Shown: positions 6,198 to 60,280 of the stretch, piece after piece
Numbering within the stretch: position 1 is the first letter of the stretch
How the letters are laid out: each line of letters begins with the position of its first letter
NCBI GenBank assembly: GCA_965197645.1
Contig: OZ240219.1
Coordinates: 416,001-480,000 of the forward strand
Source: Dehalococcoidia bacterium
Lineage (GTDB): Bacteria; Chloroflexota; Dehalococcoidia; Plut-88900
Direction of reading: 5' to 3'
Length of the DNA stretch: 64,000 nucleotides
Position numbers and translations under genes: made by a program
Notes under the pieces: model-generated
Told to the model about the DNA's origin: nothing
What the model saw: the letters and a program-made list of their open reading frames with translations, nothing else
The model's database searches: none

Positions 6198-6767
6198 TTA
6201 GCCTGCGCTTCCGTCCAGGCCCAGGTCCGAAGCAACCCCCTTCAGCGCCTCGATCACCTCTGCGACGTGATCATCCAACTCGACTCCGAGCTGCTCCGAA
6301 CCGTTGTAGATATCCTCCCTGATCACCCCTCTGGCGAAGGACTTGTCCTTCAGCTTCTTCTTCACCGATTTCACCTTGACGTCCTTGATGTCCTTGTTCG
6401 GCCGTACCAGAGCGGTCGCCGTAACCAGCCCCACCAGTTCGTCGCAGGCGAAGATCGCCTTGTCCATGGGAGTCTTCCGATCCAGACCCAGGTAGTCCGC
6501 GTGGCACTGGATAGCGTAGATGATCTCCTCGGGATATCCCTTTTCCCTCAGGATTTTCGATCCCTCGACGGGGTGCTTATCGGCGGTGGGGTGCACCTCG
6601 TAGTCGAAGTCGTGTAGAAGCCCGACAATGCCCCACGTCTCCTCGTCTCCATCGTACTTGCGGGCGTAGGCACGCATAGCGGCCTCCACCCCCAGCCCGT
6701 GCTTTCTCAGGTTTTCGCTCTTGGTGTACTCGTGCAGAAGGGCCAGCGCCTCTTCTCGGGTCTTCAT
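6198..6767 (-). CDS. HD-domain (HDIG-type) metal-dependent phosphohydrolase
   Basis: LRKHGLGVE, GLLHDFDYE, H, CH, ACDEL, KDKSFARGV. Confidence 0.85.
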   Translation of the reverse strand: MKTREEALALLHEYTKSENLRKHGLGVEAAMRAYARKYDGDEETWGIVGLLHDFDYEVHPTADKHPVEGSKILREKGYPEEIIYAIQCHADYLGLDRKTPMDKAIFACDELVGLVTATALVRPNKDIKDVKVKSVKKKLKDKSFARGVIREDIYNGSEQLGVELDDHVAEVIEALKGVASDLGLDGSAG

Positions 6768-6798
6768 TTCTGCTTCCTCCCTACGACGAGGCGCGATA

Positions 6799-7260
6799 CT
6801 ACAGCCCCTGTGCCGCCTCGATCAGCCCTTGGGTATCTGGGATCCCCCGCTCGTACACTTCGCTCAGGCGCACCACGCCCTCTTTATCGATGAGGAAGCA
6901 GGCGCGTTTGCTGTACCCATCGCCGGTCATGATCCCGAACTTCTCGGCCACGTCTCCCTTGGGGTGGAAATCGGCCAGCAAGGGGAACCATAGCTCTCCC
7001 AGGGTCAGCGAGTAGACCTTGTGGCTGAAGATGCTGTCTATGCTCACACCCAGCACCTGGGTGTTGGCCTCCGAGAACCCCCTTCGGGCGGCTCTGAGGG
7101 AGGCCAGCTCGTTGGTTCAGCCACTGGTAAAGTCGAGGATGTAGAAGGCCAGCAGCACGTTCTTATCGCCGCGATACTGGCTCAGGGTGACCTTTTCGCC
7201 GATGGTTGAATCCAGGGTGAAGTCCGGGGCTTCATGCCCTACCTCTATCTGATTAGCCAT
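6799..7260 (-). CDS. Peroxiredoxin (AhpC/TSA, BCP/AhpE-like), selenocysteine-containing (UGA at 7117-7119)
   Basis: Two in-frame ORF-track fragments join through TGA: ..APDFTL..LLAFYILDFTSG-U-TNELASLR..TQVLGVSIDS..FPLLADFHPKG..RACFLIDKEG. Confidence 0.9.
7065..7106 (-). promoter_or_regulatory. Putative bacterial SECIS element
   Basis: Hairpin starting at the 11th nt after UGA: TGGCCTCC/GGAGGCCA, AGAGCC/GGTTCT, CCC-GAA-GGG apex. Confidence 0.75.
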
Positions 7261-7410
7261 AACGTTCCTTTCTATCGACGGGGCGTTTGAAACAGATCGA
7301 CTCGGGGGATGGGTACGACGGGAATGATATAACAAAATCCGCAGCCTGTCTGCGTGTGGGACGGTGGCCGGCGCGGGGTGTGAAGGTACTATGCCGAAAC
7401 GGTCGTCGGG

Positions 7411-8556
7411 CTATCCGCGTTCCTCGATGGGCACGTACTCCAGGTCCATGGGCCCCGTGTACTGGGCCAACGGCCTGATCAGGATGTTCCGCTCCAACTG
7501 CTCCACCACCTGCAGAGTCCAGCCCGGTATGCGGCCCAGACCGAACAGGGGAATGAACAGGTCGTCGGGGATTCCCAGGAGATGATAGATCGATCCGGCG
7601 TAGAAATCGACGTTCACGAAGATGCCGTGCTTCCGATACGGCGCCATCGCCTCTTCCACGTTGGTGAGGATCTGGTACCACTTGGGCTGGCCTCTCTTCT
7701 CTCCCAGCGTCCGGGACCGCTCCTTCAGGTGCCGCGCCCTGGGGTCTTCGGCCTTGTACACCCGGTGCCCGAACCCCATGATCCGGCCGCCGTTATCGAT
7801 CCTGTTCCTCACGTAGGATTCGGCGTTTTCCGGTGTGCCGATCTCCTCGGTCATAGTCTGCGCTGCCTCGGCCGCTCCGCCGTGGGCCGGCCCCTTCAGC
7901 ACCGCTATGCCGGTGACCACCGCCGAGTGGAGATCGGATGCGGTGCCGGCGCATACCCTGGCCCCGAAGGCCGAAGCGTTGGTTCCGTGCTCCGCGTGGA
8001 GGATAAAGTCCACGTCCAACAGCTTCGCCTCCTCTTCCGTGGGGACCTTATCGAAGAGCATGCGAAGGAAGTCGGCGGCGTGACCCAAGCTCTCGTCCGG
8101 CTCCACCGGGTCCAGTCCCTCCCTGATCCGGTAGTGGGCGGCCACGATGGTGGATGCCTGGGACGTGAGCCGTATCCCTTTTCGTATCGTCGCTTCGGTG
8201 GAGTTGTCCCCCACTTCGGGGTCGAACGCCGAGAGCGCCGAAACGCCGGTCCTCATGACGTCCATCGGGTGTGCGTTCTGGACTGATCGAATAACGTCGT
8301 AGACCGCACCGGGGATAGTTCTGCTAGATTTCAGCTCCCGATCCAGCTCGTCCAGCTGACTGCGAGTGGGGAGGTCTCCATACAGCAACAGGTAGACGGT
8401 CTCTTCGAAATTAGAGTTTTCGGCCAGGTCGTGGATGTTGTAGCCCCGGTACAGGAGCTTTCCTATCTCCCCGTCAATAAAGGAGGCGGCGCTTCTATCG
8501 AAGTAGACACCCTTCAGCCCGCGATTAAGCTTGATCTCTTTCTTGGAGTCAGCCAT
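7411..8556 (-). CDS. Citrate synthase / 2-methylcitrate synthase family
   Basis: GKLLYRGY, HPMD, HAEHGTNASAF, GPAHGGA, GFGHRVYKAEDPRA, NVDFY, IRP. Confidence 0.93.
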   Translation of the reverse strand: MADSKKEIKLNRGLKGVYFDRSAASFIDGEIGKLLYRGYNIHDLAENSNFEETVYLLLYGDLPTRSQLDELDRELKSSRTIPGAVYDVIRSVQNAHPMDVMRTGVSALSAFDPEVGDNSTEATIRKGIRLTSQASTIVAAHYRIREGLDPVEPDESLGHAADFLRMLFDKVPTEEEAKLLDVDFILHAEHGTNASAFGARVCAGTASDLHSAVVTGIAVLKGPAHGGAAEAAQTMTEEIGTPENAESYVRNRIDNGGRIMGFGHRVYKAEDPRARHLKERSRTLGEKRGQPKWYQILTNVEEAMAPYRKHGIFVNVDFYAGSIYHLLGIPDDLFIPLFGLGRIPGWTLQVVEQLERNILIRPLAQYTGPMDLEYVPIEERG

Positions 8557-8765
8557 AACCAACCTCCGACATAGACTTTAACGGCGTGACGTTCGATGCA
8601 GCGGTGCGAGGACTGGTAAGCTCCGCTAAGGCATCAGTGCATGTGCCCTTTCGGTCATCTCGATAATGAGGGAAGGATTCCACCTGTCGTATATGTTATA
8701 ACGGGCCTTGGAGCCGCTACTCTCGATAAACGCGTAAGGGGTGGTTGAAGATTCCTCCATGTCGG

Positions 8766-59644: not shown

Positions 59645-60280
59645 ATGAAGTTCTTGACCCAGATGTCCCTGCTGCAAAAGCGAATAATCTTCTCCATCGG
59701 GTTGGCGGGTATCGCCGCGTTCGTGTTCACCTTCAATAATCCCCTGGCAGGCGGGCCGGCCAGCACCATGGTCTCCGAGGCCGGCGAGACGATGTCGGTC
59801 ACGCTGGGCATAGTCGACAACGTCAACCTCGATAGCACCGACGAAGGCGTGGGGGTGGACGTGGGGCAGGCGGCCCCCAACTTCAACCTCGAGGACGAGT
59901 CCGGCGAACTTGTCCAGCTCTCCCAGTACCTGGGCGAAAAGGCCGTGGTCGTGAACTTCTGGGCGAGCTGGTGTGCCTTCTGTCTAGAGGAGATGCCCGA
60001 TCTTCAGAGGATCGCCGAAGAGTTCGAGGACGATCTGGTTATCATTGGCATCAACAACATGGAGACGCCACAACAGGGCGACTCCTACGCCGTCGAGCGC
60101 GGCGTGACCTACCCCACCGTTTACTTCCCCAGGGACGCCGCAGTGGTGCAGGCCTACGAGGTGCTGGCCATGCCCACCACCTACTACCTCTCCAAAGACG
60201 GCGTCGTAGTGGTCAGGAAGATCGGCTTCGATACCTTTGAGGGGATAAGGGAGAAGGCCCTTACCGCCATAGAAGGCTAG
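59645..60280 (+). CDS. TlpA/ResA-like thiol-disulfide oxidoreductase, membrane-anchored
   Basis: N-terminal TM, GQAAPNFNL, VVNFWASWCAFCLEEMP, MPTTY. Confidence 0.9.
   Translation: MKFLTQMSLLQKRIIFSIGLAGIAAFVFTFNNPLAGGPASTMVSEAGETMSVTLGIVDNVNLDSTDEGVGVDVGQAAPNFNLEDESGELVQLSQYLGEKAVVVNFWASWCAFCLEEMPDLQRIAEEFEDDLVIIGINNMETPQQGDSYAVERGVTYPTVYFPRDAAVVQAYEVLAMPTTYYLSKDGVVVVRKIGFDTFEGIREKALTAIEG

Follow-up and report, generated by a model that had tools for sequence, protein, structure and literature searches.

In a Dehalococcoidia bacterium, a stretch of 64,000 nucleotides (hereafter the window; positions 416,001 to 480,000 of contig OZ240219.1) contains two neighbouring open reading frames on the minus strand, 7117..7335 (72 aa, ending in ..FYILDFTSG followed by TGA) and 6799..7056 (85 aa). 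The question raised by this locus is whether the two frames are independent or whether they are the halves of one gene in which an internal UGA is decoded as selenocysteine (Sec). An earlier note on the sequence had joined them into one frame split by a single TGA, and this was borne out: both frames were found, and when TGA is translated as Sec (U) the stretch 7260..6799 gives one frame of 153 residues whose sole internal stop is U48 in ..FYILDFTSG-U-TNEL.. With a probability of about nine in ten we regard the locus as a single functional gene for an AhpE-like peroxiredoxin (Prx) with UGA codon 48 read as Sec, and the catalytic residue is almost certainly the Sec encoded by this UGA.

The complete gene (6799..7260, minus strand) consists of 153 codons and a TAG stop (6799-6801). 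The ATG at 7258-7260, rather than the TTG at 7335, was taken as the start because the homologues share it; all of them begin with MA(N/D/E)Q. A Shine-Dalgarno-like AAAGGAA (7265..7271, minus strand) lies 4-10 nt ahead of the ATG. A consensus scan returned a sigma-70-like promoter match, CAGACA-17-TATCAT (7324..7352, minus strand), in the 150-nt gap after the upstream citrate synthase gene; it agrees with 9 of 12 consensus positions and, with one match found against 0.3 expected, is weak evidence for a promoter. In each of the 11 other genomes of the family to which the window belongs, the citrate synthase gene (7411..8562, minus strand; PF00285, 414 bits) likewise lies next to the Prx gene. 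The same holds for the downstream gene on the minus strand, which encodes an HD-domain protein (6198..6767; PF01966, 34.8 bits) and begins 31 nt past the Prx stop; in a Sec clade at 52-54% identity it lies within about 1 kb at four loci (L061-L064) out of five.

The joined protein is a peroxiredoxin. Residues 7-131 matched the AhpC-TSA profile PF00578 with 111.8 bits (cut-off 26), and U48 (codon 7117..7119, minus strand) aligned with the peroxidatic Cys of Mycobacterium tuberculosis AhpE and of 2-Cys peroxiredoxins. Thr45 of the TxxU motif (7126..7128, minus strand) is conserved and aligns with the Thr in FTGIC of AhpE. Arg119 (6904..6906, minus strand), the conserved active-site Arg of peroxiredoxins, aligns with that of ..ANRGTF.. 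in AhpE, and both its column and the U/C column at position 48 are invariant in the homologue alignment (A2). The Pro of the canonical PxxxTxxC is absent, its site being occupied by Ile41 (7138..7140, minus strand). Across the clade this column holds I, V, P, R or L in Sec and Cys forms alike, while passages of a review term the motif PxxxTxxU highly conserved (PMC13188914). Translation and alignment thus agreed exactly with the earlier description of a TxxU protein of 153 aa with Ile in place of Pro. The only Cys of the protein, Cys121 (6898..6900, minus strand), lies two residues past the catalytic Arg; each of the 12 sequences from the window's family has the motif RAC, the other rows of the alignment having A, V, I, S or T at this position. 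A role of Cys121 as resolving residue is speculative.

Among families of solved structure the family profile scored best against AhpE (168 bits, next family 135), whereas in single-sequence comparison AhpE and a 2-Cys Prx tied with 88.8 and 90.2 bits. The AlphaFold model (mean pLDDT 95.9, pTM 0.91) has a thioredoxin-type fold with residue 48 at the start of helix 46-57, so that the peroxidatic residue is placed in the first turn of helix alpha2. It superimposes on AhpE with a TM score of 0.94 in both directions and an rmsd of 1.4 A over 153 columns, and the best 50 fold matches were all peroxiredoxins. The gene product belongs to the short AhpE-like branch of the peroxiredoxins. No equivalog name can be given because none of the 15 NCBIfam families listed reached its cut-off, the best being PrxU (NF040737) with 74.1 bits against 270.

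It might be supposed that the TGA is a true stop and that the locus is a pseudogene or consists of two short ORFs without relation to each other, the N-terminal one coding for a peptide of 47 or 72 residues. The frame is indeed split under translation table 11, and in public gene calls this gene and its relatives at 64-79% identity appear only as the C-terminal piece of 85 aa; such fragments are, however, also what one expects when a Sec codon goes unrecognised. The distribution of the TGA among relatives speaks against a stop. A homologue was found at E<=1e-20 in 28 of 61 related genomes, and the 32 matches in the 61 genomes comprised 24 with exactly one TGA and 8 Cys forms with none, which supplies the Cys/Sec homologue pairs that the earlier note had called for. 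In the 30 homologous loci that were read through, every one of the 24 TGAs fell in the T/S-x-x-U column, and the other six loci have Cys there. The recurrence of TGA in the same column in 24 of 30 loci is far beyond chance. The Sec form occurs in every one of the 12 genomes of the window's family (69-73% identity), where the protein is conserved on both sides of the TGA. The 24 loci keep the TGA column even where protein identity has fallen to about 40%, a distance over which a nonsense mutation would not persist. Moreover, the variants seen in contigs of other strains, at 7135/7137 and at 7078, are synonymous by codon reading, and the genome has the full Sec machinery described below. We therefore consider a true stop extremely unlikely. 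The lineage in question is that of uncultured Dehalococcoidia: the named records place the loci in this class, with 16 Sec and 6 Cys forms among 22 loci. A tree of the Sec and Cys homologues requires at least six changes between the two states, four of which are forced by well-supported branches.

A sequencing or assembly error is a second way in which a TGA could arise in place of TGC or TGT, the protein then being an ordinary Cys peroxiredoxin. Judged by the records of its relatives and a contamination estimate of 6.35%, the genome seems to have been assembled from a metagenome, which lends this idea some weight. It is opposed by the 11 other genomes of the family, which carry TGA at the same place, and by contigs from other runs; reads with TGC or TGT were among the findings that the earlier note had listed as refuting its reading. 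In four of four runs examined (two DNA, two metatranscriptome; three further studies) contigs cover 7117-7119 with no listed difference. Contigs of the DNA runs X3 and X5, from two other studies, carry the TGA unchanged. Contigs of the RNA runs X7 (6861-7216) and X9 (6917-7293) carry it as well, and a further one (X7 record 17, 6631-6881) crosses the junction between the Prx gene and the HD-domain gene, these RNA data being assembled contigs of one study in which carry-over of DNA is possible. An error at the codon is accordingly so improbable as to be practically negligible. The Prx gene and the HD-domain gene are possibly co-transcribed. Separately, we observed that runs labelled as sponge metagenome contain near-identical contigs.

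Directly past the UGA the mRNA is predicted to form a SECIS-like hairpin of 42 nt (7065..7106, minus strand). In the minimum free energy (MFE) fold calculated with ViennaRNA, the lower stem UGGCCUCC/GGAGGCCA (7106-7099 / 7072-7065) is followed by an internal loop, the upper stem AGAGCC/GGUUCU (7095-7090 / 7079-7074), an unpaired G and the apex CCC-GAA-GGG (7088-7080; loop GAA at 7085-7083), which can be written CC(C)-(C)GAA-GG(G). The hairpin starts at the 11th nt past the UGA, after a gap of 10 nt, and its apical loop lies 30-31 nt past the codon. Stems, bulged G and starting point are the same as those in the earlier note, every sequence element of which was confirmed to be present where it had been placed. 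According to passages of PMC13188914, the consensus bacterial SECIS model (bSECIS; bSECISearch) calls for a small loop at the apex that has G in position 1 or 2, an upper stem of 4-16 bp, a distance of 16-37 nt between UGA and loop, and an MFE <= -7.5 kcal/mol. On all four counts the hairpin falls within the model: its loop measures 3-4 nt with G as first or second nucleotide, its upper stem 8-9 bp, its spacing 30-31 nt and its MFE -29.2 kcal/mol. It differs from the common form in that the loop is G-A-A instead of G[G/U].

How far the stability of the hairpin exceeds expectation depends on the control. A 76-nt piece was unremarkable against 200 dinucleotide shuffles (z = -1.37; 20 of 200 folded as well), a weak control, while the 51-nt piece that holds the hairpin gave z = -2.91 against the same number of shuffles. 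Against synonymous recodings drawn with the codon usage of the genome, z was -2.99 (12 of 2000 recodings as stable) and, in a repeat, -2.77 (9 of 1000). A hairpin past the codon is specific to the Sec genes, and the Cys forms do not have one. Over the 51 nt past the codon, 28 distinct Sec genes had a mean z of -2.19 and 12 Cys genes one of -0.09 (Mann-Whitney p = 4.6e-5, a value that is overstated as the rows are kin). A search of Rfam with the hairpin gave no SECIS and no other matching family; the one hit, to the Pseudomonas sRNA P35 (E 0.45; 22.9 bits, gathering score 70), was dismissed as a chance match to a GC-rich hairpin. We infer that the hairpin acts as the SECIS, i.e. as the ligand of SelB.

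The earlier note had predicted selA, selB, selC and selD elsewhere in the genome, and the complete set was found. The genome, a single contig of 3.2 Mb, holds a tRNA-Sec (66.4 bits; called tRNA-SeC with anticodon tca by ARAGORN), selA (547.7 bits, cut-off 268), selB (346.8 bits, cut-off 242) and a Sec-type selD (379.7 bits, cut-off 125) that itself contains one TGA; all matches lie above the curated cut-offs. TGA otherwise serves as stop in this genome, the frames of selA and selB being open and free of internal stops. At least five PF00578 genes with an in-frame TGA are present, among them a paralogue with the motif SWUDGC (G000:C1:742063-742431). Together with SelD, they fit the reported richness in selenoproteins of Dehalococcoidia, whose metagenome-assembled genomes rank among the selenoprotein-richest bacteria in passages of PMC13326102.

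The UGA might still be read through by other means, either as Cys or Trp by a near-cognate tRNA or as Cys on tRNA-Sec when selenium is scarce, or the hairpin might not be the element read by SelB. The identity of the residue at the UGA is derived from sequence comparison. The hairpin differs between sister genera and lacks the GU in the loop that is typical of the other candidates in the genome, none of which is individually significant in stability. Read-through as another residue is countered by the use of TGA as stop elsewhere in the genome, and Sec decoding is favoured because a UGA in the column of the catalytic Cys, Cys homologues, a hairpin restricted to Sec forms and a full set of sel genes make up the accepted signature of a selenoprotein gene, as set out in passages of PMC13188914. 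We judge these alternatives together very unlikely, and the interpretation of the earlier note is supported.

The comparison of hairpins bears on a further claim of the earlier note, namely that the locus offers a SECIS model for this lineage, which finds support in part. The hairpin of the window does fit bSECIS, but those of sister-genus orthologues and of the other candidates in the genome are different. Long hairpins with a loop beginning with G about 31 nt past the UGA occur in the genus of the window, in genus g3 and in distant clades, where the stems are in different registers. The sister genera g2 and g4 of the same family lack the exact hairpin of the window. They have a hairpin of 19 nt (21 nt where it is closed by one more U-A pair) with a UUC or UUA loop 19 nt past the UGA. 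This loop does not conform to the bSECIS rule, as neither of its first two nucleotides is G. The short hairpin varies too little for covariation to lend it support: 69 of 70 cells are paired and five of seven pairs are invariant, one pair varies as C-G, U-G and U-A, and 71 of 500 shuffles reached the covariation score. Among the five other candidate selenoprotein genes of the genome, stems are short (6-8 bp) and four have GU-containing loops: a stem of 7-8 bp is capped by GUA, GUG, GUA or AGUU 17-27 nt past the UGA, while the fifth (1308912) has a 6-bp stem and an ambiguous loop. Their hairpin energies range from -12.9 to -15.0 kcal/mol, and in stability none of the five stood out significantly from synonymous recodings (z -0.12 to -1.85). 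Compared with these, the hairpin of the window is unusually long and stable. No statistical model could be built from these candidates, and among them the hairpin of the window is atypical. As sister genera use a different, shorter hairpin, there is no single SECIS model for the lineage.

The two types of hairpin in orthologous genes amount to a small natural experiment on SECIS evolution. If both are functional, the SelB of this lineage might read something other than the canonical loop G, and the SECIS would turn over rapidly under coding constraint. Moreover, Cys121, which is specific to the family and close to the catalytic Arg, might add a 'resolving' partner to form a Sec/Cys Prx that has no canonical Pro. 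This combination is doubtful, and we offer it tentatively.

We infer Sec insertion, binding of SelB to the hairpin, peroxidase activity and the nature of the reductant. If the gene behaves like those of bacterial systems that have been characterised, SelB loaded with Sec-tRNA(Sec) would bind the apical part of the mRNA hairpin and deliver Sec once the ribosome reaches UGA codon 48. The selenolate of U48, situated in the first turn of helix alpha2 and presumably activated by Thr45 and Arg119, would attack a hydroperoxide and be converted to the selenenic acid. A thiol partner, which might be thioredoxin or a glutaredoxin-like protein, would then reduce it back, or reduction may proceed via Cys121.

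The selenoprotein type has been known for more than 20 years, and what has been achieved here is a correct annotation rescue. The main value is one of annotation: because the public proteins consist of the 85-residue C-terminal fragment, they miss, for a conserved antioxidant enzyme of uncultured Dehalococcoidia, both the catalytic half and the dependence on selenium. The term 'hidden selenoprotein' holds with respect to gene callers but not to the family, as peroxiredoxins with TxxU are long-known selenoproteins (passages of PMC13188914 and PMC1794560), for which repeated exchange of Cys and Sec has been described, with five Cys-to-Sec events in Table 1 of PMC1794560, a study that covers 12 Sec forms of Prx. 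Dehalococcoidia selenoproteomes have likewise been catalogued already (passages of PMC13188914 and PMC13326102). The selenoproteome surveys lump all PF00578 TxxU proteins as 'Prx', and a literature search on AhpE and selenocysteine, at the level of listings, found no paper that names an AhpE-type Sec branch.

The protein resembles the TxxU Sec-peroxiredoxins in its PF00578 domain, the UGA at the peroxidatic position, the existence of Cys homologues and the SECIS hairpin directly past the UGA, and it differs from their motif PxxxTxxU in that the Pro is missing. PrxU of Eubacterium acidaminophilum, on which Sohling and colleagues worked in 2001, is said to be the experimentally shown prototype of a Sec-Prx. 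The gene described here is not orthologous to it; besides the low NF040737 score, that model spans 233 positions versus 153 residues here. The Prx-like thiol:disulfide oxidoreductase selenoproteins with UxxC, to which the SWUDGC paralogue in the same genome belongs, are members of the same Pfam family, but they have a thioredoxin-like redox pair whereas the gene studied here has a peroxidatic T-x-x-U with no CxxC-type partner. Among solved structures, the closest resemblance is to M. tuberculosis AhpE (Rv2238c; PDB 1xxu, 1xvw, 4x0x and 5id2), a 1-Cys peroxiredoxin of the same length (153 aa) with 35-36% identity. Both share the active-site context F-T-G-x-C/U and neither has a C-terminal extension with a resolving Cys. 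M. tuberculosis AhpE is reduced by mycoredoxin-1 and mycothiol, a reductant system that belongs to Actinomycetes, and some of the Cys homologues carry the JGI name 'mycoredoxin-dependent peroxiredoxin'; the host here is a Dehalococcoidia bacterium. The protein differs from AhpE in having Sec for Cys, Ile for Pro and an extra Cys two residues past the catalytic Arg. Its gene extends the known TxxU selenoperoxiredoxins by a branch of AhpE type.

The peroxiredoxin gene (Prx) occupies 7260..6799 on the minus strand of the window, where the table-11 open reading frames 7117..7335 and 6799..7056 lie in one common frame. Translation with TGA as selenocysteine (U) gives 153 residues, of which the sole internal stop is U48 (7117-7119), in the context ..NVLLAFYILDFTSG-U-TNELASLR... 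The ATG at 7258-7260 is common to all close homologues, which open MA(N/D/E)Q, and direct reading of the sequence places a Shine-Dalgarno-like AAAGGAA before it; the TTG at 7335 is not shared in this way. An earlier note had described a frame split by a single TGA and a hairpin beginning at the 11th nucleotide thereafter, and translation and folding reproduced that description in all details. Gene callers shorten the gene. In the protein collection it is represented by no more than an 85-aa C-terminal piece (P0002), and relatives at 64-79% identity are present there solely as pieces of 85-102 aa. Full-length entries, some of which carry the names 'peroxiredoxin' or 'mycoredoxin-dependent peroxiredoxin', begin at ≤52% identity, and each one used in the tree has Cys.

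The protein matches PF00578 (AhpC/TSA) in Pfam with 111.8 bits. In single-sequence alignments to solved structures, M. tuberculosis AhpE (..FFPLAFTGICQGEL..) and 2-Cys peroxiredoxins have their peroxidatic Cys opposite U48, and their catalytic Thr and Arg opposite Thr45 and Arg119. Assignment to a subfamily from the single sequence ended in a tie (AhpE 88.8 versus 2-Cys Prx 90.2 bits); with a profile of 24 homologous sequences AhpE came clearly first (168 bits, against 135 and 127 for the solved families that followed). An AlphaFold2 model built from the same alignment (mean pLDDT 95.9, pTM 0.91), in which residue 48 opens helix 46-57, had AhpE as its best fold match (TM 0.94 in both directions, rmsd 1.4 Å, 153 columns). 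Orthology to PrxU, an experimentally known selenoperoxiredoxin, was rejected, since the protein scored 74.1 bits with NF040737, whose cut-off is 270. Translation and alignment to solved structures thus bear out the earlier reading of a TxxU selenoperoxiredoxin of 153 residues which differs from the PxxxTxxC peroxiredoxins in having Ile for the canonical Pro. In the relatives this column holds I, V, P, R or L among Sec and Cys forms alike, so loss of the Pro is a trait of the clade unlinked to Sec. The sole Cys of the protein, Cys121 (6898-6900, minus strand), is located in R-A-C two residues past the catalytic Arg. Each of the 12 sequences from the window's family has it; the remaining homologues in the alignment all lack it. 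Judged from its sequence context it may be a resolving residue, which could form a selenenylsulfide with U48.

Decoding of the UGA as Sec implies that selA, selB, selC and selD are present elsewhere in the genome. The source genome, a single contig of 3,211,320 bases, possessed every Sec-decoding component, each above its curated cut-off: tRNA-Sec (66.4 bits, cut-off 47; tRNA-SeC with anticodon tca in ARAGORN), selA (547.7 bits, cut-off 268), selB (346.8 bits, cut-off 242) and selD (G000:C1:941844-942767, plus strand, locus L017; 379.7 bits, cut-off 125). The selD gene contains one in-frame TGA and SelD is a selenoprotein itself (..HCAGUASKF..), with an 8-bp stem and a GUA triloop 27 nt past its UGA.

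A six-frame search of 61 genomes, including the window's own, revealed Prx homologues at E≤1e-20 in 28 of them. The 32 matches comprised 24 with exactly one TGA and 8 without, so that Sec/Cys homologue pairs do exist. In the 30 loci that were read through (the other two matches being Cys-type rows without a locus), all 24 TGAs fell in the T/S-x-x-U column, and Cys was found there in 6. Within the window's family the Sec form was present in 12 of 12 genomes, at 69-73% identity to the window and with the protein conserved on both sides of the codon. Going by named records, these relatives are Chloroflexota/Dehalococcoidia MAGs; Cys forms occurred among others in Actinomadura, Spirillospora, a Sporichthyaceae MAG and Acidobacteriota MAGs. 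A maximum-likelihood tree was calculated for 27 Sec and 57 Cys rows, 84 in total. Its database entries were the first 45 full-length proteins (≥140 aa) with the motif out of 120 listed, with fragments and later rows omitted. In this tree the window fell into a clade whose 11 rows are all Sec (SH-aLRT 99). At least 6 changes of the Sec/Cys label are required, 4 of them forced by well-supported branches, in agreement with the repeated Cys/Sec exchange that Table 1 of PMC1794560 gives for Prx.

It might be thought that the TGA is an assembly error and that reads would show TGC or TGT in its place. This is ruled out by independent contigs: positions 7117-7119 were covered without a listed difference in DNA runs from two other studies (X3 and X5) and in two metatranscriptome runs (X7 record 19, 6861-7216; X9 record 23, 6917-7293). 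Nearby listed differences at 7135/7137 and 7078 were synonymous on a reading of the codons. Because the RNA contigs come from a single study and may reflect DNA carry-over, they are weak evidence, and of Prx transcription only. Contigs of these 'sponge metagenome' RNA runs matched 6600-7500 with 2-8 differences per 251-377 nt. The DNA runs represent related strains (X5: 20 differences over 901 nt of 6600-7500).

The SECIS-like hairpin folded by ViennaRNA (7106..7065, minus strand, 42 nt) begins at the 11th nucleotide after the UGA. It consists of a lower stem of 8 bp (UGGCCUCC/GGAGGCCA), a small internal loop, an upper stem of 6 bp (AGAGCC/GGUUCU), an unpaired G and the cap CCC-GAA-GGG, which ViennaRNA draws as CC-CGAA-GG. 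Compared with dinucleotide shuffles a 76-nt piece was unimpressive (z -1.37, 20 of 200 folding as well), and a 51-nt piece gave z -2.91. Synonymous recodings with the genome's own codon usage ask whether the hairpin exceeds what the coding sequence imposes. The 51-nt piece folded at -29.2 kcal/mol versus -18.8 ± 3.5 in such recodings (z -2.99, 12 of 2000 as stable; in a repeat z -2.77, 9 of 1000); by this control the hairpin does go beyond it. Its stems use low-frequency Arg codons (genome shares: AGA 0.07, CGA 0.12, AGG 0.18). Over the same 51 columns mean z was -2.19 in 28 distinct Sec genes versus -0.09 in 12 Cys genes, a difference overstated by the Mann-Whitney p of 4.6e-5 because the rows are kin. 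With 30-31 nt from UGA to loop the hairpin fits the model of bacterial SECIS elements in the legend to Fig. 2 of PMC13188914 (apical loop 3-9 nt with G at position 1 or 2, upper stem 4-16 bp, UGA-loop distance 16-37 nt, MFE ≤ -7.5 kcal/mol). Rfam contained no family matching it.

The hairpin had also been proposed as a SECIS model for the lineage. This was borne out only in part: the hairpin does not extend to the relatives, in which hairpins are either short or shifted in register. The genera g2 and g4, which form the closest sister group of the window in the tree, are without the long hairpin (L022-L031). They carry a short GGCC-A-CCC-UU(C/A)-GGG-C-GGCC at 11-33 nt past the UGA, with its apex at 19 nt (for example L026:1654-1674). 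Here 69 of 70 cells were paired and one pair appeared as C-G, U-G or U-A, too little variation for covariation, 71 of 500 shuffles reaching the score. In genus g3 and distant Sec clades the hairpins were long and had their apex about 30-35 nt past the UGA, in shifted registers and with unrelated sequences. As a modest side point, predicted hairpins of two different kinds thus occur among orthologues of a single family. Five other candidate selenoprotein genes of the genome had stems of 6-8 bp, in four of them with caps (GUA, GUG, GUA or AGUU) 17-27 nt past the UGA; none of the five was distinct from its synonymous recodings (z -0.12 to -1.85).

Citrate synthase (7411-8562, PF00285) lies on one side of the Prx gene; on the other, an HD-domain gene (6198-6767, PF01966) begins 31 nt past the Prx stop. 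All three are on the minus strand. This order (6198-8562) was kept in 11 of 11 other genomes of the family, and an HD gene was found within about 1 kb of Prx in four of the five loci (L061-L064) of the Sec clade at 52-54% identity. The 150-nt gap after citrate synthase contains a putative sigma-70-like match (7352-7324, minus) and a putative terminator-like site (7354-7340), both from consensus only. In the genome as a whole PF00578 matched 11 times, and five of these matches have one in-frame TGA: Sec-Prx, a second TxxU form, a GGGNU-T form, a UxxC Prx-like gene and a 503-residue protein. The second TxxU gene (L074; G000:C1:1308912-1309280, minus; ..FYSKDFTYGUTREV..) probably encodes a BCP/PrxQ-like selenoperoxiredoxin. 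The PF00578-like GGGNU-T gene (L077; G000:C1:2313118-2313504, plus) has its TGA in the unusual ..YTSSGGGNUTRMAL.. and, 17 nt further on, a GUA triloop that caps a 7-bp stem. The 503-residue open frame (L081; G000:C1:2802513-2802866, minus), a candidate selenoprotein, has ..FWTYCUINCMH.. (C-U-x-x-C motif) within an N-terminal redoxin domain, and its long C-terminal part is rich in repeats. A Cys-type redoxin paralogue lies in the window at 59861-60211 (G000:C1:475861-476211, plus; PF00578, 79.7 bits) in a 255-residue frame with no internal stop.

By analogy with the bacterial Sec pathway (PMC13188914), SelB with Sec-tRNA(Sec) would bind the apex of the hairpin and decode UGA48. Peroxiredoxin chemistry suggests that U48, placed in the first turn of helix alpha2, would act as a selenolate activated by Thr45 and Arg119 and reduce a hydroperoxide, the oxidised Sec then being regenerated by a thiol partner. 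With a single frame, an aligned active site, the AhpE fold, complete machinery, a conserved codon with Sec/Cys pairs and a hairpin confined to the Sec forms, we put the probability of a genuine Sec-decoding peroxiredoxin gene at a little over nine in ten. Its main interest lies in annotation rescue. The prototype TxxU Prx reportedly came from Eubacterium acidaminophilum. TxxU Prx appears in PMC13188914 among the experimentally supported prokaryotic selenoproteins, and Sec Prx counts in genome surveys rose from 12 in 2006 (PMC1794560, Table 1) to 91 in 78 organisms in 2016 (PMC5029168). According to the account of BSepDB in PMC13326102, two Dehalococcoidia MAGs, with 49 and 46 selenoprotein genes, are in the top ten bacteria by number of such genes. 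Titles and abstract openings on AhpE and selenocysteine described no Sec-containing AhpE-type enzyme. Since TxxU Sec peroxiredoxins are already catalogued, the gene represents another case of this known type, on an AhpE-like branch.
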